Shown here in pieces: positions 10,348 through 54,033 of a stretch of DNA of 55,510 bases (position 1 is its first letter; each line of letters opens with the position of its first letter). The translations under genes and the position numbers were made by a program. The notes below the pieces were generated by a model. That model was not told the origin of the DNA and searched no databases. It saw only the letters and a list, made by a program, of their open reading frames with translations. Source of the stretch: a bacterium (GTDB lineage Bacteria; Bdellovibrionota_C; UBA2361; SZUA-149); contig JAUIMJ010000001.1 in NCBI GenBank assembly GCA_030433295.1, forward strand, positions 1 to 55,510, read 5' to 3'.

Positions 10348-10794
10348 TTGATTGAGTATGTAAATTTTCTGGTGTTTCAAACTATTGCGATGGCGCTTAC
10401 GGCCTTGCTTCTGCCTCGCCTCGAGATTACCAACGTCTTCGGGGCCCTGGGGGCAGTACTGACTCTGGCGCTCATTAACGCAACGCTATGGGATGCGGCT
10501 CTCTTTTTTAGTCTTCCGGATTCGGTATCGCTTAAGATGTTTGTGCTCTTGCTCATCAATGGAGTCTTGTTCTGGATCGTTGCCAAGGTTCTACCGGGAA
10601 TTGAAGTGGAGGGCCTGGCTCCGGCACTTGCGGCTCCGATAGTGTTTACCATTTGCAGCACGCTGATTGATCGCTACGGTCGGAATGTCGACTGGGTCGA
10701 AGTGTACCGCTTTGTGGAAACGGTATTTTCAGGATTGCGCGACTATGTAAGCGAAGCACCGGCTAGCCCCGATACGCCGAGCCCGCCCCCATAG
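10348..10794 (+). CDS. Phage-holin family IV (DUF360/YvlD-like) small membrane protein
   Basis: Four hydrophobic helices with the layout and motifs typical of PF04020 (LLPRLEI.., LLINGVLFWIVAKVLPGIEVEG). The start is a TTG and is uncertain. Confidence 0.55.
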   Translation: MIEYVNFLVFQTIAMALTALLLPRLEITNVFGALGAVLTLALINATLWDAALFFSLPDSVSLKMFVLLLINGVLFWIVAKVLPGIEVEGLAPALAAPIVFTICSTLIDRYGRNVDWVEVYRFVETVFSGLRDYVSEAPASPDTPSPPP

Positions 10795-24931: not shown

Positions 24932-25657
24932 CTACTTTATTTCAAGTAATTCCACATCAAACACCAAAACTGAGTTAGGCGGAATACCCGGACGACCCGC
25001 CTCACCGTAGGCAAGTGCGCTGGGGACGAAAAGCGTAGCCTTACCACCGGTTTTCATCAGCGGAATCCCCTCGGTCCATCCTGGAATGACACCATTGAGA
25101 GGAAACTCAGCGGGAGCGTTTCTCTTGTAAGAGCTATCAAACTCGGTTCCGTCAATCAGGCTTCCTTTGTAGTGAACCTTGACCGTGTCAGTTGGCTTCG
25201 GGCTTTTCCCGCTTCCTTCTTTAGTGATGGTATACTGCAGGCCCGACTTGGTAGTTTTAACTCCCTTCTTTGACTTGTTGGCCTTCAGGAAATCCTCGCC
25301 GGCTTTTTTATTCTTTGTAGCAAGGGCTTTCTGCTTCTCCTGCATCTGAGACTGCAGACTGAGCATCGCCTTCTGCATCTCCTGAGGAGTTAGAGCGGAC
25401 TCCTTGCCATTGAGACCATCAACAAGTGATGTCTTGAGTGTTTCCACATCAACATCTACTCCCTGACGTTTGATGCCTGCGGCGATTTGCTGGCCGATGG
25501 CGTAACTGGCTTTCTGCATGTCAGTTTTCAGCTCAAGCTTTTCAGCGAGGGCGAGGGTAGAGATCGAGAGCATTGCAGTGGCGAGTCCAAGACGGACTCC
25601 TGCGGTACGAATTGTTGTATTCAAAAGACTGTTCCTCGTGATGGTTAACAACATCAT
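24932..25657 (-). CDS. fkpA: FKBP-type peptidyl-prolyl cis-trans isomerase with N-terminal dimerisation helix domain (FkpA/Mip-like), secreted
   Basis: Signal-like N-terminus. C-terminal FKBP block VKVHYKGSLIDGTEFDSSY...GVIPGWTEGIPLMKTGGKATLFVPSALAYG...IPPNSVLVFDVELLEI. Confidence 0.9.
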   Translation of the reverse strand: MMLLTITRNSLLNTTIRTAGVRLGLATAMLSISTLALAEKLELKTDMQKASYAIGQQIAAGIKRQGVDVDVETLKTSLVDGLNGKESALTPQEMQKAMLSLQSQMQEKQKALATKNKKAGEDFLKANKSKKGVKTTKSGLQYTITKEGSGKSPKPTDTVKVHYKGSLIDGTEFDSSYKRNAPAEFPLNGVIPGWTEGIPLMKTGGKATLFVPSALAYGEAGRPGIPPNSVLVFDVELLEIK

Positions 25658-29047: not shown

Positions 29048-29896
29048 ATGAAAAATGCAACTCGCGATCTGAAGCAGATCGGGCGGCGACAGCAGGCACA
29101 AATACGGTACCTGCTTCAATTGATTCGAAGCCTTCAGTCTCCGATTGAAAGCGTTCGAACGAGAACAATACATAATTTTGACAGTGATTCTCTCGCCGAG
29201 GCGCTGGCATTACCCGTATGCGTTCGAAACGGTCACGACCGGAAAAGAAAGCGTATCATTCATCATTTTGTTGCGGCTGTGGTTTCTATGGATCTTTTGG
29301 CACACTCGTCGAAAGACCTGAAAACCCTGGGCCGCGTCCTCAGACTGGTTTTCTGGAAGCTTCCGGAAGGTCGAGGATTCATGCGACGAAAGCTCCTGGT
29401 GATGCGCACCTTCAAGCTCGTGGATGCCGCTCGTTCCAGGCAGAAGAATGCTGAACGGGAGCTTAAAAAGCAGCAGGATGGGACTAAGGAGAATCTCGAG
29501 GCCCGTGACAAACAGTGGCAGAGCCTGCAAGACAGCAATCCCGATGAATGTCTCAGGGTAGTCGCTGATTTTGCTGCGGAACCTTCTGAGCATCCAAAGG
29601 TGCGTGCCAATGCGATTCTCTTTATCCTTCGCGGATCGGAAGAACTGCTCTCGAGCAGTGAAAATCGCGCGTACTTCTATGTGGGGCTCACGGAAATCCC
29701 GCTGGAGGAGCGCGATGCATGTGAACTGTCAGTGATTGCTTCGGCAATGGTGCAGATTCTAATCTCCACCCCACAGGAAGAACGCATTCCTGACTGGGCC
29801 GCGGAGATGCTTCCCGTCTCCGATTCCCTTGCGCAAATGACAGAGGCTAAGACCTGCAAGCAGGCGCTCGACTACCTGAGGACTTTGCTCGAGTGA
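29048..29896 (+). CDS. Hypothetical protein (helical, no family recognised)
   Basis: 282-aa ORF with normal amino-acid composition. The overlapping minus-strand ORFs look like shadows. Confidence 0.45.
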   Translation: MKNATRDLKQIGRRQQAQIRYLLQLIRSLQSPIESVRTRTIHNFDSDSLAEALALPVCVRNGHDRKRKRIIHHFVAAVVSMDLLAHSSKDLKTLGRVLRLVFWKLPEGRGFMRRKLLVMRTFKLVDAARSRQKNAERELKKQQDGTKENLEARDKQWQSLQDSNPDECLRVVADFAAEPSEHPKVRANAILFILRGSEELLSSSENRAYFYVGLTEIPLEERDACELSVIASAMVQILISTPQEERIPDWAAEMLPVSDSLAQMTEAKTCKQALDYLRTLLE

Positions 29897-33702: not shown

Positions 33703-34287
33703 ATGGTAGAAGATCAAAAAAAACGTGCCTTGCTTGTGCTGGCGGAAGGCTGTGAAGAAATTGAAACGGTTGCGCCTATCGACGTTCTGACGCGTGTGGG
33801 CGTGGATGTCCTTGTTGCGTCTCTGAAACCTGGGCCGGTAAAGGCTGCTTACGGGACCACGCTTGTGCCCGATTGTACCCTTTCTGAGGTGGAGGGAGAT
33901 TTTGACGGTATTATCTGCCCGGGTGGAAAGGCGAATGCGCGGGCGCTGGCCGCGGATGAACTCGTCCGAAGCAAAATACAGGAATTTGCGCAGTCCGGAG
34001 CCCTTGTCGCGGCAATCTGCGCGGCACCAAGCCACGTGCTGGGAGAGAGTGCGGGAATTCTTCGTGGTCGACGTGCCTGCGGAGATCCGGGATTTCTCGA
34101 CAAGCTTCGCGACTCGGGGGCCCTGGTGCAGGATGTTCCGGTTTGTATTGATGACAATATCATTACCGCTACGGGACCTGGCACTGCGCTGCCCTTTGCG
34201 CTGAGTATTGCGGCATATCTTGTCGGCGATGAAGCGGTCGAACCTTTTTCGAAAAAGTGGGGGATCGACTACTGTAGACGAGGCTAG
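33703..34287 (+). CDS. DJ-1/PfpI-family protein (YajL/DJ-1 subgroup)
   Basis: ALLVLAEGCEEIETVAPIDVLTR, GG..N, and nucleophile elbow VAAICAAPS. Confidence 0.9.
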   Translation: MVEDQKKRALLVLAEGCEEIETVAPIDVLTRVGVDVLVASLKPGPVKAAYGTTLVPDCTLSEVEGDFDGIICPGGKANARALAADELVRSKIQEFAQSGALVAAICAAPSHVLGESAGILRGRRACGDPGFLDKLRDSGALVQDVPVCIDDNIITATGPGTALPFALSIAAYLVGDEAVEPFSKKWGIDYCRRG

Positions 34288-35333
34288 CCCCCTGAGCGCA
34301 TTTGATGGAGCAGGCGCAGGACTGGTCCTGCTTCCTGCTCGGGAAGTGAAACGAATGCTTCCATCATTGCAATCGACGGCGCGCAGCCGTCCTCTTCAGT
34401 GAAGGTTTCGTTATCAATTTTCTTCTGGGTTTCCTCTGGCAGCGTGGAAATCGCCTGATTCATCAGTGTCTCGATTCGTGTCCTGTCATCGTCGAGAATG
34501 GGGCTTTCCAGCGCCGACGCAACGGCTTTTGCGCTTAGTTCTTTTGAGGCAACTCTTGTGGTCTTCCAGCCTTCAGACGACTTGAGCTGCTGCATCTCTT
34601 CCGGGCTAAGTGCTTTCTTAATAACAAAGACCTTTGAACAAAGTTGTGGCGAAATCTTCTCGACCACCTTTCTTCTGTCAATGTGATTCTTGTAGTACGC
34701 GACGATGTCAGCGTCACTGCTCTTTGCAATCGTGCGGCCCTCGAGCATGAGAAGCTGGGTGTAGTGTTTACTAAACTCGCTCTGATTCTGTTCTCTGATG
34801 GCCTTCTCTATGCCATCGAACATGGCCTTCAGTTCGGGCAGGGCGTCGTGCAGCAGGCGAGCGCTGGGGTTGTCTGAGAAAAAGGCCTCGAGCGGCTTCA
34901 TGTTTGGCTTTTTACCGAGGGTTTTTTCTGTAGCTTTAGCGCACTCGTCAGAGGTAACCGCAAGGTTTTTGAATTTGTCGTGGAATTTTCCTCCAATACA
35001 TCCCCCGATTTTGCGTCCCCAGGTGCTACCTTCCTCAGGCAGCTTTATGAAGAATGGCAAGTCCGCTGCGACCTCGTCGACGCAGGAATCAAACAACTCG
35101 CCGCTCACTGCGGTAGAGCATTCTTCAGCGTCGAGGGAAAAACAGGAGGTAAACATCTGTCCTTCCCCGCAGACGGTCGTTGAGAATCTCTTCTTGAATC
35201 CGCTTTTCCAGAATGGCTTCAGGCTGAAGTCAGAGAAGGACTTGTCGCCACCGCAAGCGCTCAATGGAAGCAGCACCGTAAAAAGAACTAATGTGAGCAA
35301 AGAAAATCGGTTTTTAGCTGCAGTATGTTTCAT
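34284..35333 (-). CDS. Hypothetical lipoprotein
   Basis: MKHTAAKNRFSLLTLVLFTVLLPLSAC-GG has a lipobox (LSAC). ATG at 35333. No family recognised. Confidence 0.6.
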   Translation of the reverse strand: MKHTAAKNRFSLLTLVLFTVLLPLSACGGDKSFSDFSLKPFWKSGFKKRFSTTVCGEGQMFTSCFSLDAEECSTAVSGELFDSCVDEVAADLPFFIKLPEEGSTWGRKIGGCIGGKFHDKFKNLAVTSDECAKATEKTLGKKPNMKPLEAFFSDNPSARLLHDALPELKAMFDGIEKAIREQNQSEFSKHYTQLLMLEGRTIAKSSDADIVAYYKNHIDRRKVVEKISPQLCSKVFVIKKALSPEEMQQLKSSEGWKTTRVASKELSAKAVASALESPILDDDRTRIETLMNQAISTLPEETQKKIDNETFTEEDGCAPSIAMMEAFVSLPEQEAGPVLRLLHQMRSGG

Positions 35334-35417
35334 TTGCCTGGCCTTTAGGTATCCGGGAGTATCGAAGGGTAGAATAAACGGACTTGTGTAGTATTCCAAG
35401 AGGTATCTTTTGCACCG

Positions 35418-38198: not shown

Positions 38199-38882
38199 TT
38201 AATTCCTTTCGCTGTAGTGGTCGCTTCCTGGTAGCTCAAACAGCTCACTTACCTGCAGAAGAGCGCTTCCATAGCCGATAAGGTTTCTGGCCGATGCGGA
38301 GAACAATGAGGATTCTTCGGTAGAATTCGCAATATCTCGCAGCAAAGCGGGAAGCTGTTCAATCATCTGAGCTTCGAGTATGTCGGGAGACTCCGGTGTG
38401 ATCAGCCTTGCCCGTGAATTGCAATAATAGCACGCATGGCTGAGTCCCAGATGAAAGGCTACGAGAAATTGTTTTTGCCTCGCCCCTTCTACTTCCGATT
38501 GCTGCTGCCGGACAATCTGCCGAAGCTCTGCTTCGGCAGACTCCAGGACCTTGTCGAGGTAGCCGGGGTAGAAGCGGCTCCAGATTTCCAGAGCTTCAAA
38601 CAGGGCAGCATACGCGATACTGCATTCGGCCATAGCCTTGTATCGAGTCTTCCATGGTGCATCGACTGTACGGATCAACCGCAGCGATGATTTGAGCATG
38701 GATGCAATCCTTCGTCCGCAACGGCGACGTTCCCCGGAGCTCCTGCCGGAGACGGGGCTTGTGTGTTCAGTGATCTCAGCGCGCACGAAGCGCGCAGAGA
38801 GTTCCTTTGCAATATGAATCACCAGCGGCGAGTCCGCGTGCCTTGTGAAAAAGACACCTTCATCAAAATACTTCGTCATCAT
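38199..38882 (-). CDS. Hypothetical protein
   Basis: 227-aa ORF with ordinary composition and no recognised motif. Co-directional with the dehydratase gene and divergent from the YheO-like regulator gene. Confidence 0.5.
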   Translation of the reverse strand: MMTKYFDEGVFFTRHADSPLVIHIAKELSARFVRAEITEHTSPVSGRSSGERRRCGRRIASMLKSSLRLIRTVDAPWKTRYKAMAECSIAYAALFEALEIWSRFYPGYLDKVLESAEAELRQIVRQQQSEVEGARQKQFLVAFHLGLSHACYYCNSRARLITPESPDILEAQMIEQLPALLRDIANSTEESSLFSASARNLIGYGSALLQVSELFELPGSDHYSERN

Positions 38883-39787: not shown

Positions 39788-39865
39788 TGCTATTTTATCC
39801 TCCTTTTTGAGGAATTTTGTGTTCTTGTCATCAGTGTTCTTATTATCAGTGGTGAGGTTTCAGTA

Positions 39866-40423
39866 ATGAGCATTCTGAAAAGGTGTATCGCAGTGTTTGT
39901 TATGTCTGTGCTCCCAACCGTGTGTATTGCGCATGCTGAATCTGCAGATCAAGCGATTGCGAGGTTTGTAAAAGAGATTGGGCTTAGAGCAAAACTGCTC
40001 AAGGAGTTTGACCGAACGGTAGAGCGGGTCGCAAATCAGACGCTGATGGAGGTGACCCGTGGGGGCGCGGCGGCAGCAACGGATGAGAAGTGGTTGGAGC
40101 GCGTTAACGCGGTACGTCCGATAGCTAATCGGGCCTTTGATGCGGCTGCGATTATCAAAGAGCTGCATTTTCCTTACTATCGGCAGTATTACACTGAGGA
40201 AGAAATGCGTCAGCTGAGCGAGTATCACAAAATGATAAAAGCTGCGGTTGAGCAGGGCACGGCGCGAAGTATATTGGAGGCGCGGGCTGCTGATTTCGCC
40301 GGAACATCGGCAGGTAAGAAGTATCTTGAGCTGCGGCAACAGGAGATTATGCTCTGGGATGTGACGAGAGAACGGATTGAGAAAATCGCTCGGGACAGTG
40401 CGGCGAAAGCCTTTTCCGAATAA
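39866..40423 (+). CDS. Secreted DUF2059-like protein
   Basis: Signal peptide MSILKRCIAVFVMSVLPTVCIAHA. YYTEEEMRQLSEY...TSAGKKYLEL resembles the DUF2059 core. Confidence 0.5.
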   Translation: MSILKRCIAVFVMSVLPTVCIAHAESADQAIARFVKEIGLRAKLLKEFDRTVERVANQTLMEVTRGGAAAATDEKWLERVNAVRPIANRAFDAAAIIKELHFPYYRQYYTEEEMRQLSEYHKMIKAAVEQGTARSILEARAADFAGTSAGKKYLELRQQEIMLWDVTRERIEKIARDSAAKAFSE

Positions 40424-40450
40424 ACGTATGTTGCCCGAAGGGAGGGCCTG

Positions 40451-41236
40451 ATGATTACGAAATCTGAAGTCGAAGATCTGGAAACGCCGAGCGGCACCAT
40501 GCGCTGTTACGTGTACCGACCGCTTGCGGCGGGTAGATATCCGGCGGTGATGTTCTTCTCCGAAATTTTTCAACAGACGGAGCCGATACAACGAGCTGCG
40601 ACCTTTCTCGCCGGACATGGGTTTTTGGTAGTTGTGCCTGAGATATTCCATGAACTTAATCCTATCGGAACCGTACTCGGCTATGATGACGAGGGCAAAG
40701 AAAAGGGTAATGCGGATAAGATTACCAAAAAGCTGGCACACTATGACAGCGATGTGGAAGCCCTGGTTACGTTTATGGAAAAGCATCCCGCCTCAACCGG
40801 TAAAATTGGTTCTATGGGGATCTGCATCGGTGGTCATTTGTCATTTCGTGCAGCCATGCACCCCCGCGTCCTTGCCGCGAGCTGCCTATACGCCACGGAT
40901 ATACATTCATCAAGCCTTGGCGAGGGAAAGAACGATGATTCACTTGCAAGAGCGGGAGACATCAATGCCGAGTTACAAATGATCTGGGGTCGGCAGGATC
41001 CGCATGTGCCGGCTGAGGGAAGATTAGCTATCTACCAGAGACTCACGGAGGCGGAGTGCCATTTTACCTGGCATGAGTTCAATGCTCCTCACGCTTTTCT
41101 TCGGGATGAGGGGCACCGCTATGATCCGGAGTTATCGCTGATTTGTTACCAGCTTGCTATTGGCTTGTTTAACCGCAAGCTGTCGCAGGGCGATATACCC
41201 GATACTACTGAGGTGTCGCCGGATCAGGATTGTTAA
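40451..41236 (+). CDS. Dienelactone hydrolase family protein
   Basis: YPAVMFFSEIFQ, GFLVVVPEIFHE, nucleophile motif GSMGICIGGH, C-terminal ..HAF.. His region. Confidence 0.85.
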   Translation: MITKSEVEDLETPSGTMRCYVYRPLAAGRYPAVMFFSEIFQQTEPIQRAATFLAGHGFLVVVPEIFHELNPIGTVLGYDDEGKEKGNADKITKKLAHYDSDVEALVTFMEKHPASTGKIGSMGICIGGHLSFRAAMHPRVLAASCLYATDIHSSSLGEGKNDDSLARAGDINAELQMIWGRQDPHVPAEGRLAIYQRLTEAECHFTWHEFNAPHAFLRDEGHRYDPELSLICYQLAIGLFNRKLSQGDIPDTTEVSPDQDC

Positions 41237-43073: not shown

Positions 43074-43314
43074 AATTTTTCTTAATAAATATGTTTGTAT
43101 CGTGGTATACTAGCCTAACCTCAAGATGCGATTTTGCCTAGGCTGTTCGGTGGCTATTACGCTAAATCTGCATATATGCGTATGAATAAGAAAAAGGGTG
43201 GTGGCCCCATGCTCCGCCCATATGGCACCATGAACCTCTGAACTCGGCGCGGCGATGTCCGTGACGAGTGGGATTTTTGTCGTTCTCGTCCGTCCATACT
43301 GATGAGAACGATCT

Positions 43315-44505
43315 GTGAGAGGAATTGATGCACGTCAGCGCTTATGGAGAGGACGTTTGAATCGCAGGTCTAAAATCATTGCTGCACTGGTGATTTGTGT
43401 CGCCGCAGGGCTGTTTGCGGTCTTTTCCAGTGGTGTGTTCAGCGCGCCGGAGCGGGTACCACTGTCAGTAGTACGCGCGGAAGCGTTTGAGTTCACCGAT
43501 CTTATGCGTCGAAAGGGCAACCTTGGAATTTCCTGTGGGCTTAATAATGCGTGTCGGGAGGTACCGGGGCAGCACCTCACCAACAGTGCCTGGCAGATTC
43601 TCGGACTTTCCCGAATGCATACGGTTGACTCCAGGCGCTCATACCTTCCTGAACTAAAGACCAGTCTGAAGGCGTACTTCGATCCCAAAGGTCCATTTCA
43701 GGATCAGGCGTATTCATTTCATCAATTGTACGAAGCGTATCAGTTGACAGGGGAGAAAGAGTTTCTCATCTGGTTTGTTGATCGCATCGGAATCATGGTG
43801 CCCCACGCTAATGCTATCCTAAAGAGTGCCCCGGAAAAATTCGATCCCATGCTGGTTGCCACTCTGGCCCGGCAGTTGGGGCAGGCGGCAGCTCTGTTTT
43901 CAGACGCTTCTATGGAGAGCTTTCTTCAGGAACGACGGCGTTTACCTAAAGATGCTTCGCGCGCGAAGCTGGAGGCAAGGCGTAAGGCTGACTCATATCT
44001 GGCGCTCGCAAATGCACTGCTTGATTTCTCACGCTCTGATGAACGATTTTCTGAACCTGACGTTATTGAAGGTTTTGATGAAGCGGACCAGCGCTCATGT
44101 TTCAGATTCTGGGCACGGAGTGCGATGTATCTTGCCTCGGATAAACCCAAGGACTTCGCTCGGCTGCGGGCCTTTATGAAAGGTGCTGACTTTTTGTCGA
44201 AGAGTCGTGAGCAACTTCGTTTTTCTAACCTTCAGACCGTACTGCCCTGTATTCACGCGTTTCAGGAGCTTGGCGAGAAAGACAGCAAATTCAAGAAGAC
44301 CGCCTTGCATCTTCTGAAAGAGGTGGTTGTTCCGAACTGGGATGGCTCACGGAGAGACTTGTGCCGTGGGGACGGAGGATTCTTCGCTGATGTCCGGCCG
44401 AAGGAGCGTCTCTGCGATCAGAATACCAAATCGGTCTCTGATAATGCCTGGGTTATATTTTTGCTAAGCAATGAGGTCGCTTCTGTTGAAGTTGAAATTA
44501 ACTAG
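43315..44505 (+). CDS. Hypothetical N-terminally membrane-anchored protein, first gene of the 43.3-49.8 kb cluster
   Basis: [24 protein letters not shown], then a ~340-aa helical soluble domain. The real start may be TTG 43357, which is preceded by GGAGAGGA. Confidence 0.55.
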
Positions 44506-46450
44506 ACGTATTGTTTATCCGTTTCTTTTTGCAACGGCAGTATTGCTCTCGTTCCCTTTGGCGAGCATGGCGCAGAGATCCTGCCCGCAAGGACCTTCAT
44601 CCTGTCCGGCATGCGCGGAGGGCGAAATTTGTCGCTGTCCTGAACCCATACCCGGTTGTCCCCGTGTGTGTTCCTGTGCAGAGAATGAATGCAACGACAT
44701 CGACTGCGGAGATCAATGTTGTTACGATAATTCCAGTTCCGGGCCTCATTGTAACCCGTGTAATAGCGATTGCCCGGAGCCTAATCCCTGCGAGCAGGAA
44801 ACGACCTGCGAAGACTCCTCCCAGGCCTGTTCTACGGTAAGTGTTCCCTGTCCGGGCTGTGGAAATGTGACCTCACCGCAGTGTGAGTGTGAGCCCTGTC
44901 CGACGCCGACACCGGAGCCCACTGCTGAACCGACCCTGGAGCCAACGCCGGAACCAACGGCAACTCCTGAGCCAACTGCGGAACCTACGGAAACACCGGA
45001 ACCTACGGCTACACCGGAACCAACCGCTGAGCCTACAGAAACGCCGGAACCTACATCGACTCCGGAACCGACCGCCACACCAGAGCCTACGCCTACACCG
45101 GAGCCAACTCCAACGCCTCGACCTACGTCGACTCCTCGACCTACGCCGACGCCGCGGCCGACTCCTCCGCCTACACCGCGTCCGACACCATCAATTACGC
45201 CACTACCTACGCCGCCTCCTACGCCGGAGCCGACGATCTGGTGGACGCCCGAACCGACCTGGACACCTCCGCCCACGCCGGAACCAACCGTATGGTGGAC
45301 GCCTGAACCAACGTGGACACCTTCTTCAAGTAGCAGCTCGTCAGCGAGTTCTGCGTCCTCAAGTAGTGCGTCCTCTGCGAGCTCAACCTCTTCGTCGACG
45401 TCATCCTCGACCTCGTCTACGAGTTCTTCGACGTCCAGTTCAAGCTCGGCAAGTTCCTCGAGCGCAAGCTCGGCCAGTTCAACGAGCGCAAGCTCGGCAA
45501 GTTCATCAAGTGCCAGCTCGACGAGTTCATCTACCAGTAGTTCGACGTCCTCCGCCTCGAGTGCGAGTTCCAGTACGACTTCATCTGCGTCCAGTAGTAC
45601 CTCGTCAACGTCCAGTACTTCGAGTGCCAGCAGCACGAGTTCCTCGACCTCGAGTAGTGCCTCTTCGACGTCCAGTGCTTCAAGCGCCTCCTCGGCGAGT
45701 AGTTCGACGTCCAGCTCTACCTCTTCGTCGACCTCCTCAGCGAGTTCGTCTACTAGTTCAGCGAGTTCCTCGACAAGTTCATCTGCAAGCTCATCCACCA
45801 GCTCGTCGACGAGCAGCTCAACGTCATCTGCTTCGAGTACGAGTTCAAGTACCAGCTCCTCTACCTCAAGCAGTGCGTCCTCGACCTCTTCCTCAGCGTC
45901 GAGTGCAAGTTCGTCGACTTCGAGTGCCAGTTCCAGCACTTCCTCGTCAACATCTAGCAGTACGTCTTCGAGCACCTCTTCTGCCAGTTCGTCGACCAGT
46001 TCCTCAACATCGAGTGCAAGTTCGTCGACCTCGAGCGCCAGTTCAAGTAGTACGTCCTCTGCGAGTTCGACGTCATCGTCCACTTCTTCCGCGAGTTCGT
46101 CGACCAGCAGTTCAACCTCATCGAGTACCTCAAGCGCCAGCTCGACCAGCTCCTCGACGAGTTCGTCCACGAGCTCATCGACGAGTAGCTCTACCTCCTC
46201 TGCTTCAAGTACGAGTTCTTCAACCTCTTCTTCTACGAGCTCGACCGCGTCATCATCGACCTCTAGTGCATCGAGTTCAAGTTCCTCGAGTTCGAGCAGT
46301 AGTTCGTCGAGTGCTTCCAGTTCAACGTCGAGCTCAACCTCGAGTAGCACGTCGAGTTCGAGTTCGTCGACGTCGTCAGCGTCCAGCGCGACCTCGAGTA
46401 GTTCTACTTCGTCAGGTGGGGCTCCGAAGATTCCAATGCTGATTCGCTAG
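44471..46450 (+). CDS. Secreted mucin-like protein: signal peptide, ~110-aa Cys-rich domain (~23 Cys), ~140-aa Pro/Thr/Glu linker, then a 364-aa tract of only Ser/Thr/Ala
   Basis: Signal peptide [26 protein letters not shown]. Cys-rich CPxC-type region. (EPTxTP)n repeats and duplicated PPPTPEPT(I/V)[13 protein letters not shown]-only codons from 45323 to 46414. Co-directional with and overlapping its neighbours. The start (ATG 44471 or TTG 44486) is uncertain. Confidence 0.7.
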
Positions 46451-46491
46451 CAGGTTCCGGTAGATACACTTGGGTTTATGGAAGAGGTGCG

Positions 46492-46938
46492 ATGACAGAA
46501 AAGAGAAGATGTGAGTCAGGAGTGGCAATTACGGAATTCGCCATATCTGCTCCGCTGATTATATTGCTGCTTGTTGGTCTGATAAATCTGGGTTCCATGT
46601 TGTGGCAGGTTCATGTGTTTTCTGATGCTGCCCGCGAGGGGGCCCGGGTGGCAGCAAATCGATCAAACTTTGATAATGCCTGTGCTAATCTGGTGACAGA
46701 CGCGGGTAGTGCTACCGCAGAGTATATGAATAATGCGGGCAGTAATTATACGGCCAGTTGGGAAATGGTTGACGTGCAGCTCGCAAATGCCACCTGGGAT
46801 GGACTTTCGATGGACTTCGTGCGCGTCAGTACCAAGACAAATTCGAGCGACAACTGTCTACTCTGCTTTGATGGCATCCTTACGTATATAGACGTAGAAC
46901 TATGGAGCAGTTTCGCACTTGAAAAGCCTTGTACGTAA
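46492..46938 (+). CDS. TadE-like (Flp-pilus pseudopilin-type) protein
   Basis: N-terminal signature GVAITEFAISAPLIILLLVGLINLG, then FSDAAREGARVAA. Confidence 0.8.
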   Translation: MTEKRRCESGVAITEFAISAPLIILLLVGLINLGSMLWQVHVFSDAAREGARVAANRSNFDNACANLVTDAGSATAEYMNNAGSNYTASWEMVDVQLANATWDGLSMDFVRVSTKTNSSDNCLLCFDGILTYIDVELWSSFALEKPCT

Positions 46939-47368
46939 ATCTAACAGTGTCGCCGAAGAAAAGGGGGCGACTCTCGTAGAATTTGTGCTGGTGCTCATCG
47001 TCACGCTTGGGGTCATTGGTTTTATGATTGACTCAGCCGTCGCGTATTTTCACTATCACCTTCTCGTGCATGCAAATGCCGCTACGGTGCGGCGTCTTGC
47101 GGTGAATGTTCAGGGAGCGACAAGTGAACCGGACCTCGCCAATCTGGCTGAGACCATGGTTGATCAGCGCTATCGGAATGCCTATGGAGTGCAGATGCCC
47201 TCTGCGGACTTTGCCGCGAGGATTGAACGTACGCCAGATGCTGCGTGTCTTCTGCGAGTTCGCGCTGAGATGCCATTTCGTTGTTTCTTCTGTGTGTATT
47301 TTGATGGCCCCTTTAATTTGATTACTGAAGCAGAAGCTCTGATAGAGGATGAGTGTTTCACTTGTTAA
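46919..47368 (+). CDS. TadE-like protein (second copy)
   Basis: GATLVEFVLVLIVTLGVIGFMIDSAV signature. TTG start overlaps the previous gene by 20 nt. Confidence 0.7.
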   Translation: MKSLVRKSNSVAEEKGATLVEFVLVLIVTLGVIGFMIDSAVAYFHYHLLVHANAATVRRLAVNVQGATSEPDLANLAETMVDQRYRNAYGVQMPSADFAARIERTPDAACLLRVRAEMPFRCFFCVYFDGPFNLITEAEALIEDECFTC

Positions 47369-48222
47369 GAGAACCTGTGGCTTTGGAAAAGCAATTGTCT
47401 GAATACCTGAGTAGCGCTTGCACTAAACAGCAGTCTGAGCAGCAGACTGAGCGGCAGGATGAGCAGGAGACTGAGCGGCAGGATGAGCAGGAGACTGAGC
47501 GGCAGGATGAGCAGGAGAGGGGCGCCATTCTGATCTTCGTGGTCTTATTGGTCGTGGTGCTCATCGCCCTGACTGGTCTGGTGGTAGACCTTGCGCGCCT
47601 TCAATATACGGTGATTCGAGCACAGCAATCTGCTGACGCGGCAGCGCTTGCTGCTGTGATCCACCTCGATGACCCGAGCGATATCGATAACTGGAGAAAG
47701 ACAAAGAAAGCGGTTCTGGCTTCGCTTTCTCAGAGTCAGTTATACGCTTTGGACGATGATGCTGCGGAGTCACTCAAAGCGGCGAACAGCGACTACCCGA
47801 TGAGGACCATGCGATTTCTCGAGGGAGAAACTACCCCACACGATTACACCTGGTATGCGAAACATGCGGGATCTGCAGGCAATCTTGGCGTTGAAGTCGT
47901 TCGGGGTGTATTCTGCTATGTGCAGACCTCCCTTGTGCCTCCCAGCTTTGAGCGTCGATGGTATGCGCTCGAGAGAACTAATCACTATTGCAAGGCAAAC
48001 AGTGTGCAGGTCGATATTACGGTACGTGAGGTGCCGACTACCTTTGCCACGATTTTCGGCGTTCGGGAAATGAATGACGTACGTGTTTCCGCTCAGGCAC
48101 ATCTTAATCCCGCCCCCTATACCTGTGGACATGAGCTTTGTGACGATTTGGGAATTGTTGGTGAAATTAGCAGTCCCTATGAATATCCCTACGCACAATT
48201 CAATCCTGACCCGCCCTGTTAG
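47353..48222 (+). CDS. TadG-like (Tad/PF13400-type N-terminus) protein without an obvious vWA domain
   Basis: GAILIFVVLLVVVLIALTGLVVDLARLQYTVIRAQQSADAAALAA. GTG start overlaps the previous gene by 16 nt. The N-terminal extension carries a TERQDEQE x3 repeat. Confidence 0.7.
   Translation: MFHLLREPVALEKQLSEYLSSACTKQQSEQQTERQDEQETERQDEQETERQDEQERGAILIFVVLLVVVLIALTGLVVDLARLQYTVIRAQQSADAAALAAVIHLDDPSDIDNWRKTKKAVLASLSQSQLYALDDDAAESLKAANSDYPMRTMRFLEGETTPHDYTWYAKHAGSAGNLGVEVVRGVFCYVQTSLVPPSFERRWYALERTNHYCKANSVQVDITVREVPTTFATIFGVREMNDVRVSAQAHLNPAPYTCGHELCDDLGIVGEISSPYEYPYAQFNPDPPC
47446..47517 (+). repeat. Perfect 24-nt x3 in-frame tandem repeat (actgagcggcaggatgagcaggag, encoding TERQDEQE)
   Basis: Units at 47446-47469, 47470-47493 and 47494-47517 are identical base for base. 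Confidence 0.95.
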
Positions 48223-48281
48223 AGCGATGTGGCCCTGGCGTTCAGCAATATTCATGCTGTCTATTTTCCGAGGAGAGTGAG

Positions 48282-49787
48282 GTGCGCTTGAATCGCAGAG
48301 GACTGTATCCGGCTCTGTTCCTCCTTGGCTTTGCCTGCTCAAGTCTGGTCGCCTTTCTGCTTTTCGATGCGATACCACATGTTGAGGATGAGCATGCGAT
48401 ATTGCGTCAGGCAAAAATCTTTAGCTCGGGGGCATTCAGTGCTGAGCTCCCGGCGGTGCCTTCCGCATTTTCAATTCCCTTCATGGTGGAATATGAGGGC
48501 AGGCAGTTTAGTAAGTATCACCCGGGTTTTTCCTTACTGTTGGTGCCGGGAGTTCTGCTCGATGCCCCCTGGTTGATCAATGCCTGCTTAAGCGGATTGA
48601 ATCTGTGTCTAGTGTTTCGTCTAGTCGGAAGGAACTGGAATCGACAGATTGCCGCCCTGACCATTTTCTTGCTGCTTTGCTCTCCTATGTTTCTTGCTAT
48701 CTCAGGGTCACTGTTTTCTCACACGGCTCTTTTGAGCTGCCTGCTCAGTTTTCTGCACTTCTTTTTCCGGCTGCGTTCCGATACCTCTGTGCGACCCGCC
48801 ATATTTGCGGGATGTGCTCTTGGCTTTGCCGCATGCATTCGACCATTTTCTGCGGCCCTGCTCGCGCTGCCTTGTGTCCTGACCGCCGTGTGGCACATTT
48901 GTGCTACGCGTGACTCTGCACGGGAGCGGTATGTTCGGAGCTATGTGATACTGGGCAGCCTCACTCTTTTATTGTGTGGCGTACTGCCCCTTTACAACTA
49001 CATGACAAGCGGATCTGCGATGACTAACGCCTATACCTTGATCTGGCCCTACGATACTCTGGGTTTTGGGCCGGAGAGCGGACGCGGGGTTGGGGGGCAC
49101 ACCTTTGCAAAAGGTCTGCTCAATCTCAAATTGGATATGAGACAGTATGCGAGTCTTTCATTGGGATGGCCCTCGCTTGCCGGTGTTCCGTTGATCGTTC
49201 TTCCGATACTTGCCGGACTTTTACTTAAACCACGCCGTGCACAGGATCTTCTATTATTGCTTCCGCTGCTGATTCTTGCGCTTGGCTATACCTTCTACTG
49301 GGCCCGGGGAGGTAGTCTTTTCGGTGCGCGATACTACTTCGAATCCATCCCTTTTATTTGTGCGCTTGTCGCTGTGGGCATTTACAAGCTCGCCCTGCTT
49401 AGCAAAGCGACCTCTCTGACGTATCTTCTGGTAATTCTTACTGCGTGCTGGGGTGCGCAATCTGAGTCTCTGCCTATGCTGGCAAAACTGAAAGACCTGT
49501 ATGGCATAGATGCTAGTGACTCTGAGGTAGTTGACCGCGCAGGGATATCAAATGCCCTGGTTTTTGTATCAGTACGACATTGGACTGACTATGGTCGACT
49601 GTCCTGGAGGAATGAAGCCGATCTTCAGGGAGATATAGTATTCGCGATGGATGGCGGCACCGTGCGCAATAAAGCCGTTCGTGCATTACATCCACACCGA
49701 GAGGTGTTTTCCTTTGATCGACGCAGAGAACCAAAACTCCTTAGCGTTGAAGAACCACTCGATAAGAGAGAAGTTATCCGGAAGTAA
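48282..49787 (+). CDS. Polytopic GT-C-fold-like glycosyltransferase (PMT_2/ArnT-like)
   Basis: At least 10 hydrophobic helices by eye. An acidic DE pair sits in the first extracytoplasmic loop right after TM1 (LLFDAIPHVEDEHAILRQAKIF). A C-terminal ~100-aa soluble domain is present. The assignment rests on architecture and motif, not on a search. Confidence 0.6.
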   Translation: MRLNRRGLYPALFLLGFACSSLVAFLLFDAIPHVEDEHAILRQAKIFSSGAFSAELPAVPSAFSIPFMVEYEGRQFSKYHPGFSLLLVPGVLLDAPWLINACLSGLNLCLVFRLVGRNWNRQIAALTIFLLLCSPMFLAISGSLFSHTALLSCLLSFLHFFFRLRSDTSVRPAIFAGCALGFAACIRPFSAALLALPCVLTAVWHICATRDSARERYVRSYVILGSLTLLLCGVLPLYNYMTSGSAMTNAYTLIWPYDTLGFGPESGRGVGGHTFAKGLLNLKLDMRQYASLSLGWPSLAGVPLIVLPILAGLLLKPRRAQDLLLLLPLLILALGYTFYWARGGSLFGARYYFESIPFICALVAVGIYKLALLSKATSLTYLLVILTACWGAQSESLPMLAKLKDLYGIDASDSEVVDRAGISNALVFVSVRHWTDYGRLSWRNEADLQGDIVFAMDGGTVRNKAVRALHPHREVFSFDRRREPKLLSVEEPLDKREVIRK

Positions 49788-49788
49788 A

Positions 49789-51255
49789 TCAGGTTCCGCA
49801 GAAGGTATGCTGCACGACTTCGTGCTCCTCGGGTGGAGCCATAAACCTCTCGTGTTCTCCCTGATCGACAAAGGGCCGGGAAAGAATTCCGCTGAGTAAC
49901 TTCGCCGGCTCAAAGTTTCTATCTTCCACCGCAGCTTGTATGACTTCCTCAACGCGATGATTTCGGGGAATGAATGCAGGGTTCGACAGTCTCATGGTTT
50001 CAGCGACTGCTGCATGCGAACCCGATTCTTGCTCCAGCCGTTTTCGCCAGCGCGGAAGCCAGGGTTCCAGGCTTTTACGCATAGGTTCGCTAAAGCAATC
50101 ACTGATGCTTCGCTCGAGTAACAGCCCATGTAAACTTCGGAAACTATTCGTGTAGTCCGCTTCGTTTTCGAGCAGGATGTTCAGGAACTCTTCGATCAAG
50201 CTAAAATCATCGTCCACCGCAGTGCTAAGCCCCAGTTTACTTCCCATTGCCTGCAGCCAGGCACTCCGAAATATATCTCCGAACGTCTGAACAGCGTTGT
50301 TGGCAAGACTTACTGCTTCCTTTTGTTCCTCGGCAAGAATAGGAAGTAGGGATTCGGCAAAACGTGCAAGGTTCCACTGAGCAATAGGACCCTGGTTTGC
50401 GTAGGCGTAGCGACCATTTCGATCGATATAGCTATAGACTGTTGCGGGATCGAATGCGTCCATAAAGGCGCAGGGTCCGTAGTCTATTGTTTCACCCGAG
50501 ATGCTCATATTATCCGTGTTCATTACGCCGTGGATAAAGCCGACCGCCATCCACTGAGCAACGAGATGCGCCTGGACGCCTATTACCGTATGAAGAAGGG
50601 CGACATAGGGATTTTCCTCCCGGCGAAGTTCCGGGTAATGTCGATCTATAGTGTATTCTGCGAGAAGCTGCAGTCCCTCTATGTCTTTTCGGACGGCGAA
50701 GTATTCGAAGGTTCCAATTCGTATGTGACTGGAAGCAACTCTTGTAAAAACACCTCCGGGTAGCCTGCTCTCTCGACGCACCGTCTCACCGCTCGTAACC
50801 GCGGCAAGCGCCCTCGTCGTCGGGATGCCGAGATGATGCATCGCTTCACTCAGGACGTATTCTCGAATAACGGGTCCCAGGGCCGAGCGTCCGTCGCCAC
50901 GTCGGGAGTACGGTGTTCTTCCGGCACCTTTGAGCTGAATGTCTCGCCGTATTCCATCAGTATCCACGAGTTCTCCGAGGAGAATTGCCCGACCGTCGCC
51001 AAGCTGTGGCACGAAATTACCAAACTGATGTCCGGCATAGGCAAGCGCGATAGTATGTTCGTCCTCACTAAAGGCGTTGCCAGAGAACAAAGACTCCGGA
51101 TGGGACGAGAGCAATTCGTCCGGGGAAAGGCCGAGACTCAGCGCAAGCTCCGCGTTAAATAGGGCGAGCTCAGGTTCCTTAGAGCTGATTGGCGCAATCC
51201 GCGAATAGAATCGTTCCGGCAACGTTTGGTAGGTATACTCGAAAGGAATGTGCAT
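49789..51255 (-). CDS. selO: Protein adenylyltransferase SelO (YdiU/UPF0061)
   Basis: YAGHQFGNFVPQLGDGRAILLGE, QLKGAGRTPYSRRGDGRSALGPVIREYVLSEAMHHLGIPTTRALA, HGVMNTDNMSI. Confidence 0.95.
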   Translation of the reverse strand: MHIPFEYTYQTLPERFYSRIAPISSKEPELALFNAELALSLGLSPDELLSSHPESLFSGNAFSEDEHTIALAYAGHQFGNFVPQLGDGRAILLGELVDTDGIRRDIQLKGAGRTPYSRRGDGRSALGPVIREYVLSEAMHHLGIPTTRALAAVTSGETVRRESRLPGGVFTRVASSHIRIGTFEYFAVRKDIEGLQLLAEYTIDRHYPELRREENPYVALLHTVIGVQAHLVAQWMAVGFIHGVMNTDNMSISGETIDYGPCAFMDAFDPATVYSYIDRNGRYAYANQGPIAQWNLARFAESLLPILAEEQKEAVSLANNAVQTFGDIFRSAWLQAMGSKLGLSTAVDDDFSLIEEFLNILLENEADYTNSFRSLHGLLLERSISDCFSEPMRKSLEPWLPRWRKRLEQESGSHAAVAETMRLSNPAFIPRNHRVEEVIQAAVEDRNFEPAKLLSGILSRPFVDQGEHERFMAPPEEHEVVQHTFCGT

Positions 51256-51367: not shown

Positions 51368-51645
51368 TTAATGCGTTCGGATGTTTGCGAAAATACTTCT
51401 CTTCTTCTTAGCATGTTTATCGAATGTTAAGAAGAAATAGAGCAGCAAATGAACCCTGAGTGAAGCGCCAGCCTCGCGAAATTTGGCTTTGCGAAAAGTC
51501 GTGCTAGGCTGCGGGCCACAATATGAGAAGAGCAACTAGATCTATTCGCGTCCTCCGAGTCAATTGCAGGTGGAAGCGAATAGGGGAAGTGATAGGTTTT
51601 TACCCGCCCCGTTTTCATCATCCTTCTAAACAACCGGAGTATAGT

Positions 51646-52680
51646 ATGGCAGCAAAGCGCCCCTACCCACCGGTTGCGGTGGTGGATCTCGTCGTTGCCG
51701 GGGTTCAGGCACATATTGCGGACCCCGATAATCCAAAGTTCGATTCTGAAACCGGAGCAAATATCCTCAGGCACTGGCGTCTTTTTTGTGAGTATCTCCT
51801 CGAGCGGGAAGCGATGCAGCTCTCCTGCGAAGACGAGGTTCCTGTTCTTTCCTGGAAGCCCGGATCCAGAAAACGTAAATCCCCAGAGGCACACTTTACG
51901 CGTCTTCTTGTCGATTCCAAAGGGCAGGCGTTTTCTGAGTATCTCAGCAAGAGATTTACGGAAGTTAAACCAGCGACGGTTCGGACTGAGACATCCTCCT
52001 TGCGAGCATGTATCAGAATTCTCCAGGCGGCTGGTGAGACAGAGTTCAGGGCCGAAGATTTGCTCAATCCGAGCGTGGCAGCCGATCCGCGGACAGTAGT
52101 CCCCTTCACGGAGGAGATGGTCGCTCAGGCCTTTGGTCTGCAATCGCTACAGCTGGCCACCCGGCGGGATATCGGCGTATATGTCGCCTTCATTCGTGAG
52201 CATGTATCGCCCACGCCGAGCTGGAAGCAGGAGGTGGCGGCAAGCAAGCGACTTCGCAGAGTCAAACGTAGAGAAACTCGAGAGCGATTAGCTAAGGAGG
52301 CAGTAGTAATCGAGACTGTCACCGGCCAGATGATTTTCTGCGCAGCGGAGTGGACTCAAGCGTTCCTTGAGTATGTGCAGCCCAATCGCCAACTCAAACA
52401 GGTGATTGTGGCGATACAAAAGTATTATCGTTGGCTGGCAGAAGAGGGGCTCTGTGACTTTGATGCTGCCGCACTCGGGCAGCCGCTTCGTTTGCGAGAT
52501 CAGGGGATTTTCAAGAAACCCTTGCGATTTCGCTCGGGCTGTCCGGTAAAGCAATTTACCGGGGATGAATCGGCTCCTCAGGATCCGGAGGCAGCTGCGA
52601 CAGATGCTCATGTCTCGCGTGCGAAGATGAAGAAGAAGACGAGGAAGAAGTTGAGCCGAAGAGGTAGAGATACTGGATGA
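51646..52680 (+). CDS. Hypothetical protein with a very basic C-terminal tail
   Basis: GGAG is 6 nt upstream of the ATG at 51646. 344 aa. Tail is RAKMKKKTRKKLSRRGRD. No catalytic motif recognised. Confidence 0.5.
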   Translation: MAAKRPYPPVAVVDLVVAGVQAHIADPDNPKFDSETGANILRHWRLFCEYLLEREAMQLSCEDEVPVLSWKPGSRKRKSPEAHFTRLLVDSKGQAFSEYLSKRFTEVKPATVRTETSSLRACIRILQAAGETEFRAEDLLNPSVAADPRTVVPFTEEMVAQAFGLQSLQLATRRDIGVYVAFIREHVSPTPSWKQEVAASKRLRRVKRRETRERLAKEAVVIETVTGQMIFCAAEWTQAFLEYVQPNRQLKQVIVAIQKYYRWLAEEGLCDFDAAALGQPLRLRDQGIFKKPLRFRSGCPVKQFTGDESAPQDPEAAATDAHVSRAKMKKKTRKKLSRRGRDTG

Positions 52681-52884: not shown

Positions 52885-54033
52885 CTATGCGATGAGAATA
52901 ATCAGAGCAGTGAGAGCAGCGATTGTCCCAAGTAGGTACATGCCGCTGCGTCTTCTGCTGATTCCGCGGTTTCGCAGATACGTGCAGAGCACCCCGTTTG
53001 GCTTGATGAAATGAATGCCCTGTGCCACCAGGTTCTTCTCGGCGTCAGCCTCGATGCGCTTGAGCTTTAACACAGCGGAAAACTCAGCCGCCGTCTGATA
53101 ACGCGCTTCGGGGGCTTTCGCTCCCGCTTTCTTGATGAATGCCTCGAACCAGCATGGGACTCCTGCATCCTTTACTGCAAGCTCCGGCAGGGGGTCGGCA
53201 CAATGGCTTTTGGCCAGCTCGAACCAATTATCCTCTTCATACGGGCGGTGACCCATTACGATTTCATAGGCGAGGACGCTGAGGGAGTAGATATCGCTTG
53301 CCAGAGACACCGGCTCGCAGCGCACCTGCTCCGGCGACATATAATACGGAGTCCCAAGGCACATGCCGGTTTTTGTCAGTGAGAAGTCTTCGTTTACCGA
53401 ACGAGCAAGGCCCAGATCGGTAACTTTCGGTGTGCCATCCTCGTCAAAGATAATGTTTCCCGGCTTGATATCTCTGTGAATGATTCCCTTCTCATGGAGT
53501 GCTGCAATGCCTTCTGAAATCTGAAGCAGCATTTCTACCGCCTCACGAAAGGGGATCTGCTTGTCAGGCGCAAGAAGAAGCATCTCCTTGAGATTGCCGC
53601 CTTCGAGCAGCTCCATGACCACAAATGGTACGCCATTCTGAGTCACTCCGCTGTCGATTATGTCGATCACGTTTGGGTGAGAGATACTACGGGTGTATTC
53701 TATTTCTCGTTCGAAGCGAGTAACGCTTTCTTCATCATTAAAGGCTTCATTCGTGAGGACCTTTAGCGCAACAAAGCGTTGCGTTTCATTGTCGTAGCAG
53801 CGAAACACCCAGCCACTTGAGCCCTCACCGATGCGCTCGTGCACCACGTAGCGAGGCGAGAGTTCTTCACTGATTTTTTCAGCATTGATAATGTGAGAAT
53901 GATCCTGCATGTCATTTGCCGATGTCTGGCTCAATAATCGCTTTCCGTCTCCGACCTGAGTATCCCCGGGACTACGCATTAAATAATCGATATAAACAGG
54001 CGAAAGCTTTAGGTTTTTGAGCGGGTAGCTCAA
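52885..54033 (-). CDS. Hanks-type serine/threonine protein kinase with a C-terminal membrane anchor
   Basis: GEGSSGWVF (G-loop), VALKVL, HRDIKPGNIIF, VTDLGLAR, GTPYYMSPEQ. Terminal TM MYLLGTIAALTALIILIA. Confidence 0.9.
   Translation of the reverse strand: MSYPLKNLKLSPVYIDYLMRSPGDTQVGDGKRLLSQTSANDMQDHSHIINAEKISEELSPRYVVHERIGEGSSGWVFRCYDNETQRFVALKVLTNEAFNDEESVTRFEREIEYTRSISHPNVIDIIDSGVTQNGVPFVVMELLEGGNLKEMLLLAPDKQIPFREAVEMLLQISEGIAALHEKGIIHRDIKPGNIIFDEDGTPKVTDLGLARSVNEDFSLTKTGMCLGTPYYMSPEQVRCEPVSLASDIYSLSVLAYEIVMGHRPYEEDNWFELAKSHCADPLPELAVKDAGVPCWFEAFIKKAGAKAPEARYQTAAEFSAVLKLKRIEADAEKNLVAQGIHFIKPNGVLCTYLRNRGISRRRSGMYLLGTIAALTALIILIA

Follow-up and report, generated by a model that had tools for sequence, protein, structure and literature searches.

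The window analysed here is one entire contig of 55,510 bp (JAUIMJ010000001.1, assembly GCA_030433295.1) from a bacterium of the Bdellovibrionota_C lineage SZUA-149, and the subject of this analysis is a + strand gene at 44471–46450 (stop codon included). This gene, hereafter the target, begins with ATG and encodes a protein of 659 aa that consists of five parts: a signal peptide, a Cys-rich acidic head, a Pro/Thr-rich linker, a very long tract containing only Ser, Thr and Ala, and a short C-terminal tail. It belongs to a cluster of six + strand genes (43315–49787), in which it is followed by three genes for pilin-like proteins of the Tad type and by a gene for a GT-C fold glycosyltransferase. 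The organism is a diderm, as shown by genes of the window for a beta-barrel of the OmpA type, an FKBP of the Mip/FkpA type and a protein with a PEP-CTERM signal.

The signal peptide (aa 1–34, 44471–44572) was recognized as a Sec-type signal by direct reading and hydropathy. Its n-region is basic (K, K, R, R) and leads into a hydrophobic core with a Kyte–Doolittle value of about 2 across residues 14–24; the cleavage context is ASMA/QRS, and no lipobox was found by direct reading. Judged by this signal, the target product is likely a Sec-exported protein. The head (aa 35–146, 44573–44908), delimited by composition count, contains exactly 23 Cys residues in 112 aa (20.5%), all within aa 38–143, which form CP (seven times), CxxC (four times), CxC (three times) and CC (once) patterns. 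Its 18 Pro residues are accompanied by only one aromatic and seven aliphatic residues, and its acidic residues outnumber the basic ones by 17 to 3 (net charge about −14). Because this composition allows no hydrophobic core, the head as predicted must be held together by disulfides or metal–thiolate clusters.

The head is followed by the linker (aa 147–284, 44909–45322), which was defined by composition and by Tandem Repeats Finder (TRF). Its 138 residues include 54 Pro, 41 Thr and 19 Glu; units of the EPTxTP type turn into RPTPTP units, and decayed 48-nt (16-aa) and 18/24-nt units are detectable at the DNA level. An 18-aa Trp motif, PPPTPEPT(I/V)WWTPEPTWT, is present in two aligned copies (45212–45265 and 45266–45319, together 45212–45319). 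The tract itself (45323–46414) consists of 364 uninterrupted residues, namely 267 Ser, 59 Thr and 38 Ala (73% Ser), and follows the grammar (S2–3[T/A])n, as established by composition, repeat and codon analyses. The protein ends in an 11-aa tail (46415–46447, direct reading), in which a Gly-Gly hinge precedes a short alternating-hydrophobic stretch (I-P-M-L-I, within KIPMLIR). The linker and the tract together form a stalk of 502 residues (aa 147–648) that is rich first in Pro, Thr and Glu and then in Ser, Thr and Ala and is built from decayed tandem units. In descriptive terms, this stalk qualifies as a mucin-like (PTS) region, that is, a long repeat-derived Pro/Thr/Ser region with no predicted fold.

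No other stretch rich in Ser, Thr and Pro was found among the open reading frames (ORFs) of the window, and no run of at least 25 residues of Ser, Thr and Ala was present in six-frame translations of further bacterial loci amounting to 1.3 Mb (80 SelO and 5 GT-C loci). Much of this architecture had been described in a first-pass annotation made from the sequence, and our counts agree with it in the signal peptide, a Cys-rich stretch of ~110 aa with ~23 Cys, a linker of ~140 aa that shifts from EPTxTP to RPTPTP units, a duplicated aromatic motif (of which we refined the coordinates), the 364 residues of Ser, Thr and Ala at 45323–46414, the use of all six Ser codons and the lack of an LPXTG signal, which occurs nowhere in the protein.

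The central question regarding the tract is whether a repetitive DNA sequence generates the amino acid composition or whether the composition itself is maintained. The tract comprises 40 SSST, 26 SSA and 14 SST units, and its Ser residues are encoded by AGT (67), TCG (65), TCA (39), AGC (34), TCC (32) and TCT (30). A recent slippage array was rejected as an explanation. The longest exact nucleotide repeat in the tract is 20 nt, which is within the range of synonymous-codon shuffles (16.7 ± 2.1 nt; 25 of 200 shuffles reach 20 nt), and the probability that two identical residues share the same codon is near the random expectation (0.19–0.21) at every lag. Identical codons are rarer than expected at lags 3 and 4 (z = −3.0 and −2.0, respectively), and repeated 9- and 12-mers are slightly enriched (P about 0.013). 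This residual non-randomness of codons is due to a position-specific unit, AGT-TCN-TCG-ACC, found in the tract. All of the TRF arrays detected in the tract are decayed, with periods of 24 nt (85% matches), 21 nt (75–87%) and 111 nt (77%).

The decay has been accompanied by a strict conservation of residue type. The two copies of the 111-nt internal duplicate differ at 39 positions, and all of these differences preserve the set of Ser, Thr and Ala. None of the 364 codons lies outside this set, whereas random single-base changes would stay within it in only 47% of cases. The scrambled synonymous sites, the absence of codons outside the set and the set-preserving nature of the differences therefore argue for selection on composition. 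The tract is thus an old tandem expansion in which the DNA repeat has decayed, while selection has held the amino acid composition. The proposal of the first-pass annotation that composition rather than slippage is maintained is thus well founded, being supported by the shuffles, the lack of off-set codons and the 111-nt duplicate. Its statement that no simple perfect repeat is visible agrees with the longest exact repeat of 20 nt; it is refined by our finding that decayed units of 12, 21, 24 and 111 nt persist. The comparison of codon usage that it proposed revealed that the Ser codons of the tract differ from those of 21 other genes in the window (chi-square p = 1e-7), a shift that we ascribe to the position-specific unit.

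Three reading frames are open across the tract region, including an antisense ORF on the minus strand (44746–46350, 534 aa) that is rich in Leu, Glu, Asp, Val and Ala and has a G-non-G-N look. These features could be taken to mean that no real protein is encoded by the target frame, which would then be a shadow of the antisense ORF, a piece of non-coding low-complexity DNA or an assembly artefact. However, the openness of the other two frames is uninformative, because it is forced by the codon set of any sequence of Ser, Thr and Ala. The +2 frame is always open because all codons for these residues carry C or G at position 2, so that no triplet in this frame starts with the T of a stop codon, and the antisense frame never reads TTA, CTA or TCA because its offset triplets are NTC, NAG, NAC or NGC.

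What discriminates between the frames is the use of AG-starting codons. The tract contains 101 AGY codons and no AGR codon, whereas 59% of the other tract codons carry a purine at position 3 (log10 P of the skew about −39), and only the + frame needs a pyrimidine after AG, to encode Ser. A second line of evidence comes from the two copies of the Trp motif, which differ at 11 of 54 nt; 10 of the 11 differences are at codon position 3, and they amount to nine synonymous codon changes and one I/V exchange, which indicates that the peptide is under purifying selection. The codon skew and the third-position differences therefore show the + frame to be the constrained and selected one, which is presumably translated, and the antisense and +2 ORFs were rejected as real genes. 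The in-frame signal peptide, head and Trp motif ahead of the tract also speak against the absence of a protein. A repeat-collapse assembly error is unlikely as well: since exact repeats in the tract do not exceed 20 nt and the tract shares no k-mer above 13 nt with other parts of the contig, assembly at k≥21 is unambiguous. Taken together, the idea that the target encodes no protein is scarcely credible.

The six genes of the cluster are separated by successive gaps of −35, +41, −20, −16 and +59 nt, and msrA and selO, both oriented the other way, flank the cluster. The tight overlaps, the short gaps and the common strand argue for co-transcription of the six genes. In a scan for promoters and terminators, the counts were at the shuffle expectation; the one relevant site was a weak promoter-like match at 43082–43111, upstream of the first gene. 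This gene, orfX (43315–44505, + strand), overlaps the start of the target by 35 nt and encodes a protein of 396 aa, the N-terminus of which forms a membrane anchor while the remainder is helical. An AlphaFold2 (AF2) model of the orfX product, built on the single sequence, is all-helical with a pLDDT of 48, and a fold search with this model was uninformative.

The three genes downstream of the target encode the pilin-like proteins. The first (46492–46938, + strand) begins 41 nt downstream of the target on the same strand and encodes a TadE-family minor pilin of 148 aa (PF07811, E = 2.8e-12, above the cut-off), which carries the class-III signal G/VAITEF followed by a hydrophobic helix. The second (46919–47368, + strand) overlaps both of its neighbours and encodes a TadE-like pilin of 149 aa with the motif G/ATLVEF (PF07811, E = 1.7e-3, below the cut-off). 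The third (47353–48222, + strand) encodes a TadG-like protein of 289 aa (PF13400 (Tad), E = 1.5e-8, above the cut-off) that also shows a weak match to Tad_C. The Tad-like context noted previously is accordingly present in the form of this trio; the machinery of a Tad system is not part of it, since no ATPase, platform protein, secretin, peptidase or Flp pilin is encoded in the 55.5-kb contig. We regard the Tad context of the target as a stand-alone minor-pilin trio, as judged from these family assignments.

The TadG-like gene contains a near-perfect 24-nt tandem repeat (47436–47518; 3.5 copies with 98% matches by TRF), which had been pointed out as a contrast to the tract and was found as described. 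This repeat encodes QETERQDE units and, unlike the decayed Ser tract, is young and slippage-prone. It is located in an unusually long N-terminal leader (~56 aa), upstream of the hydrophobic segment, and this leader would be cut off if the TadG-like protein is processed like a prepilin. In addition, all three pilin-like ORFs have a Cys within the last four residues (KPCT, CFTC and DPPC). The number of Cys residues in the target head is odd (23), and intermolecular disulfides are conceivable.

The SelO/YdiU protein adenylyltransferase gene (49789–51255, minus strand) converges on the last gene of the cluster, with only 1 nt between the two stop codons, and a Hanks-type Ser/Thr kinase gene (52885–54033, minus strand) is located 1.6 kb beyond it. 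Both enzymes modify Ser/Thr; their genes run opposite to the cluster, and neither protein bears a recognizable export signal. The SelO protein is 51–60% identical to its best matches among 185,579 species-representative genomes, which implies that the lineage lacks a close sequenced relative. These matches come from Alpha-, Beta- and Gammaproteobacteria, Bdellovibrionota, Verrucomicrobiota, Firmicutes and Actinomycetota, without synteny, and thus do not place the lineage. The presence of SelO and the kinase within 7 kb is one of the features that would suit a metal-sequestering or mineral-templating protein, in which a metallothionein-like head would bind metals through thiolates and a Ser tract phosphorylated as in phosphophoryn or silaffins would bind cations. 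The head, with 20.5% Cys in CxC, CxxC and CC motifs, a single aromatic residue and a strongly negative charge, would also fit such a protein. However, no metallothionein family of Pfam matched the head even at E≤10, an exported protein meets oxidizing conditions that favour disulfides, and the kinase and SelO genes lie outside the cluster. We therefore consider this function highly improbable.

The last gene of the cluster (48282–49787, + strand) encodes a GT-C fold membrane glycosyltransferase, with matches to PMT_2 and Glyco_transf_22 above the Pfam cut-offs. An AF2 model built on 15 homologues has a pLDDT of 84 and a pTM of 0.87, and Foldseek matched this model with a probability of 1.0 to ALG12, ArnT, STT3/PglB/AglB, AftB and Pmt4. 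A search of PDB sequences gave no match, and a profile of the protein gave only a marginal match to STT3. The modelled structure confirms the assignment of the product to the multi-span GT-C fold. A DE motif (H-V-E-D-E-H) is located near aa 33–38 of the enzyme. GT-C enzymes work on the periplasmic or luminal face of the membrane and use lipid-linked (polyprenyl-phosphate) sugar donors. A precedent for such an enzyme in a pilin gene cluster is TfpW, a GT-C enzyme that glycosylates pilins (bioRxiv 10.1101/2020.04.19.049825). The presence of the GT-C gene in the same cluster strengthens the idea of an O-glycosylated stalk, and we infer that the target product is probably glycosylated.

On the basis of these findings, we propose that the target encodes an exported, probably O-glycosylated stalk protein that is linked to a stand-alone Tad 'tip' module and presents a Cys-rich head, a reading to which we assign a probability of roughly 0.5. 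The tract goes back to an ancient expansion of a 12/21-nt unit (encoding SSST/SSA), after which only changes that kept small hydroxyl residues or Ala were tolerated, and its DNA is no longer prone to slippage. According to this proposal, the small acidic head is carried distally on a stalk of ~500 residues without predicted fold. After export, the hydroxyl-rich stalk would be O-glycosylated in the periplasm by the GT-C enzyme of the cluster with a polyprenyl-phosphate sugar as the donor; an unfolded Ser/Thr polymer leaving Sec would be an ideal acceptor. The product would be a stiff, hydrated and protease-resistant bottle-brush with a length of ~100 nm or more, an estimate of ours that is based on ~0.25 nm per residue in mucin-type chains. 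The stalk protein would cooperate with the minor-pilin-like Tad proteins whose three genes lie between the target and the GT-C gene, and the head would be exposed at a distance from the cell, where it would serve as an adhesin or a binding module. Both glycosylation by the GT-C enzyme and association with a pilus tip may occur in this way, by analogy with the known systems discussed below.

Relatives of the cluster proteins were sought in a word-indexed set of 5.8 billion proteins, by exhaustive HMMER searches of 1.84 billion cluster representatives from public genomes and metagenomes, in PDB sequences and Pfam, and in three contig collections (genome, metagenome and viral). The search with the head only, which had been suggested in the first-pass annotation, gave no match: no homologue was found in the 5.8 billion proteins, the 1.84 billion representatives, PDB, Pfam (E≤10) or the metagenome and viral contigs. 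The sole match of orfX among the 5.8 billion proteins was orfX itself; it had none in the GTDB genome contigs and no Pfam or NCBIfam match even at E≤10. The TadG-like protein had no relatives in the metagenome contigs and no match among PDB sequences, and an exact-sequence look-up of four proteins of the window returned no recorded entry.

Several points weigh against the proposal of a glycosylated, tip-associated stalk. Because the head, orfX and the TadG-like protein are without detected relatives, there is no comparative support for the gene, its neighbourhood or the length of its tract. There is no clear Shine–Dalgarno sequence ahead of the ATG at 44471; translation could alternatively begin at a TTG at 44486, which follows a GAGG and would retain the signal peptide. 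The Tad machinery genes listed above are missing from the contig, as are genes for a lipid-sugar synthase or a flippase. The closest relatives of the GT-C enzyme are 38–39% identical to it, and they are flanked by genes of two-component systems and ferredoxin oxidoreductases, with no Tad or Ser-rich gene beside them. Its Foldseek matches are a mixture of protein-, lipid- and glycan-modifying enzymes and do not discriminate the acceptor, so that, as far as the model goes, the enzyme could modify pilins, lipid A or polysaccharide instead. Finally, the target is a singleton from an apparently uncultured lineage, and whatever goes beyond the evidence internal to the sequence is inferred.

The lack of a conserved tie between the GT-C relatives and Ser-rich or Tad genes is also compatible with another explanation, in which the tract is an unglycosylated polyserine-type spacer that tethers a Cys-rich binding module, the protein is exported by a general route such as the type II secretion system (T2SS), and the proximity of the Tad and GT-C genes is meaningless. 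Polyserine linkers with 80–83% Ser are well documented and common in the carbohydrases that the Gram-negative species Saccharophagus degradans, Teredinibacter turnerae and Cellvibrio japonicus secrete (PMC2699552, PMC2386152), and the window encodes a member of a T2SS substrate family (NttA-like). Like these proteins, the target product is a Sec-exported diderm protein in which a nearly pure Ser, unstructured spacer lies beside a small binding module. The known linkers, however, are 39–44 aa long on average and connect carbohydrate-binding modules (CBMs) or catalytic modules (PMC2699552). The tract of the target is about nine times longer than this average, has a regular S2–3[T/A] grammar and is C-terminal, with only 11 residues after it and no module known to Pfam. 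No such linker is present in any other protein of the window, and the tight overlaps and short gaps of the six same-strand genes favour co-transcription. We thus consider a plain spacer rather unlikely, while giving it serious weight. These linkers also qualify the view that Ser-rich proteins of this kind belong to Gram-positive bacteria: Ser-rich spacers are not confined to that group, though the Gram-negative examples are ~40 aa long and lie between known modules.

The Gram-positive serine-rich repeat proteins (SRRPs), such as Fap1, GspB, SraP and Srr, resemble the target product in having a very long Ser-dominated stalk with a binding region and in the presence of a glycosyltransferase gene nearby. 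The target signal peptide, however, is an ordinary Sec type of 34 aa, whereas that of SRRPs is specialized and ~90 aa long, and the target product has no C-terminal LPXTG anchor. It has one tract of tri- and tetrapeptide units, whereas SRRPs have two regions of S-[A/V/T/E] dipeptides that flank the binding region. The candidate enzyme of the target is a periplasm-facing GT-C protein and not a cytoplasmic GT-B pair. In Pfam scans of the window ORFs of at least 140 aa, no component of the accessory Sec locus of SRRPs (SecA2/SecY2/Asp, GtfA/GtfB) was detected. With four defining features lacking, membership in the SRRP family was rejected. TfpW of Pseudomonas aeruginosa group IV resembles the putative enzyme of the target in that it is a GT-C membrane enzyme within a type IV pilin cluster, a likeness of class and gene setting. 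TfpW acts on Ser/Thr hydroxyl acceptors on the periplasmic side and adds D-arabinofuranose (D-Araf) oligomers to the major pilin, and it is a much larger enzyme.

With respect to the pilin-like trio, a close parallel is found in the Tad 'Tip' clusters (KilL/M/N; TadE/F/G). In Myxococcus, stand-alone clusters of TadE/F/G-like genes (Kil) encode interchangeable pilus 'Tips', and similar complexes are predicted widely (PMC12075869). The target cluster likewise contains a TadE/TadE-like/TadG-like trio apart from machinery genes, and the proteins are Cys-rich in both cases. The class-III signal motif G/xxxxE(F/Y) typical of Tad tip pilins is present in the first and second pilin-like proteins, and the first and third have matches above the cut-offs to PF07811 and PF13400, respectively. 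In the known clusters, the variable distal domain is part of a large TadG/KilN protein (PMC12075869), whereas the TadG-like protein has only 289 aa here and is accompanied by a GT-C enzyme and by a stalked protein encoded as a gene of its own. In Bdellovibrio, the Tad genes are dispersed and include a lone tadG. By these comparisons, the target product belongs with the Ser-rich stalk proteins of bacteria, but its genetic setting is new and its head is an orphan.

A more specific version of the proposed tip association can be built on the tail. PilC/PilY1 tip adhesins are fastened to type IV pili through their last ~10 residues, which add a beta-strand to a PilK-type pilin; in the Tad systems studied so far, such a strand comes in cis from TadG, as from its homologue CpaL in Caulobacter (PMC13533445). 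PilC/PilY1 and MshQ resemble the target product in that they are large Sec-exported proteins encoded with minor pilins, and the target product ends in a distinct tail of 11 aa that is a candidate docking strand. They differ from it in possessing a beta-propeller or a folded C-terminal domain, whereas the C-terminal 375 aa of the target product consist of tract and tail without any domain match, and in being encoded downstream of the pilin genes, whereas the target lies upstream of them. By analogy, the target product may be a new type of Tad tip adhesin with a GT-C-glycosylated stalk of >100 nm, the last ~10 residues of which (PKIPMLIR) would alone dock it, by in-trans beta-strand addition, to a stand-alone TadE/TadE/TadG tip, so that the pilus, as it extends, would carry the protein through the secretin and hold out a disulfide-rich head at a distance from the cell. 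The polarity of the protein, with a distal head and a proximal tail, is what a tip-tethered adhesin would need. Nevertheless, we regard this version as speculative and unlikely.

Because Cys-rich modules combined with long Ser/Thr tracts are a typical build of eukaryotic extracellular proteins, such as Dictyostelium spore-coat proteins and mucins, a eukaryotic source also has to be weighed. Under this explanation, the target would be a mucin- or spore-coat-like gene acquired horizontally from a protist host by a host-associated bacterium, and its product would mimic or bind host surfaces. The deviating Ser codon usage of the tract and the occurrence of eukaryote-like kinase and NttA-like genes in the window would be consistent with such an origin. 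The NttA-like domain is encoded at 34284–35399 (minus strand) and belongs to a family of T2SS substrates first met in Legionella-type secretion, and the Mip/FkpA-type FKBP with an N-terminal dimerization domain is encoded at 24932–25657 (minus strand); the two genes hint at a lifestyle that resembles that of Gammaproteobacteria and is possibly host-associated. On the other hand, the head has no homologue in any organism in the search of 1.84 billion proteins and no Pfam match at all, the target overlaps a bacterial neighbour and is embedded in an operon-like cluster, and the codon shift is accounted for by the position-specific repeat unit. An origin by mimicry is thus very unlikely.

Some further features were noted in the rest of the window. 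A protein of 248 aa encoded at 1212–1958 (minus strand) carries a PEP-CTERM sorting signal (E = 2e-6), which probably reflects an exosortase system that the target does not use. The product of the ORF at 2341–4524 (727 aa) has only a weak CBM6-like match, and no Pfam family was found for orfX or for the ORFs at 51523–52680, 29048–29896, 38199–38882 and 39860–40786. A membrane protein of the Phage_holin_4_2 family (10348–10794, + strand; E = 4e-12) is encoded beside a TetR regulator and is the sole phage-type gene in its surroundings. The window gave no match in scans for Rfam families and tRNAs.

If the proposed nature of the target is correct, its stalk would rank with the longest that diderm bacteria build purely from Ser, Thr and Ala, and the tract, with randomized synonymous sites and none of its 364 codons outside the set, would offer a clear natural example of composition kept by selection during the decay of a DNA repeat. 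The six-gene cluster would represent a compact module in which the periplasmic O-glycosylation of long Ser/Thr polymers could be examined. The target product has no known anchor or outer-membrane targeting signal, and docking at a pilus tip would explain how it arrives at the cell surface. Such docking would extend the principle of PilC/PilY1, a recent discovery, to Tad pili and to cargo without a folded domain, and cargo of this type, held by a terminal beta-strand, would widen the range of what pili can display. The finding would thereby join bacterial mucin-like glycoproteins with the biology of type IV filament tips, two fields that are usually separate.

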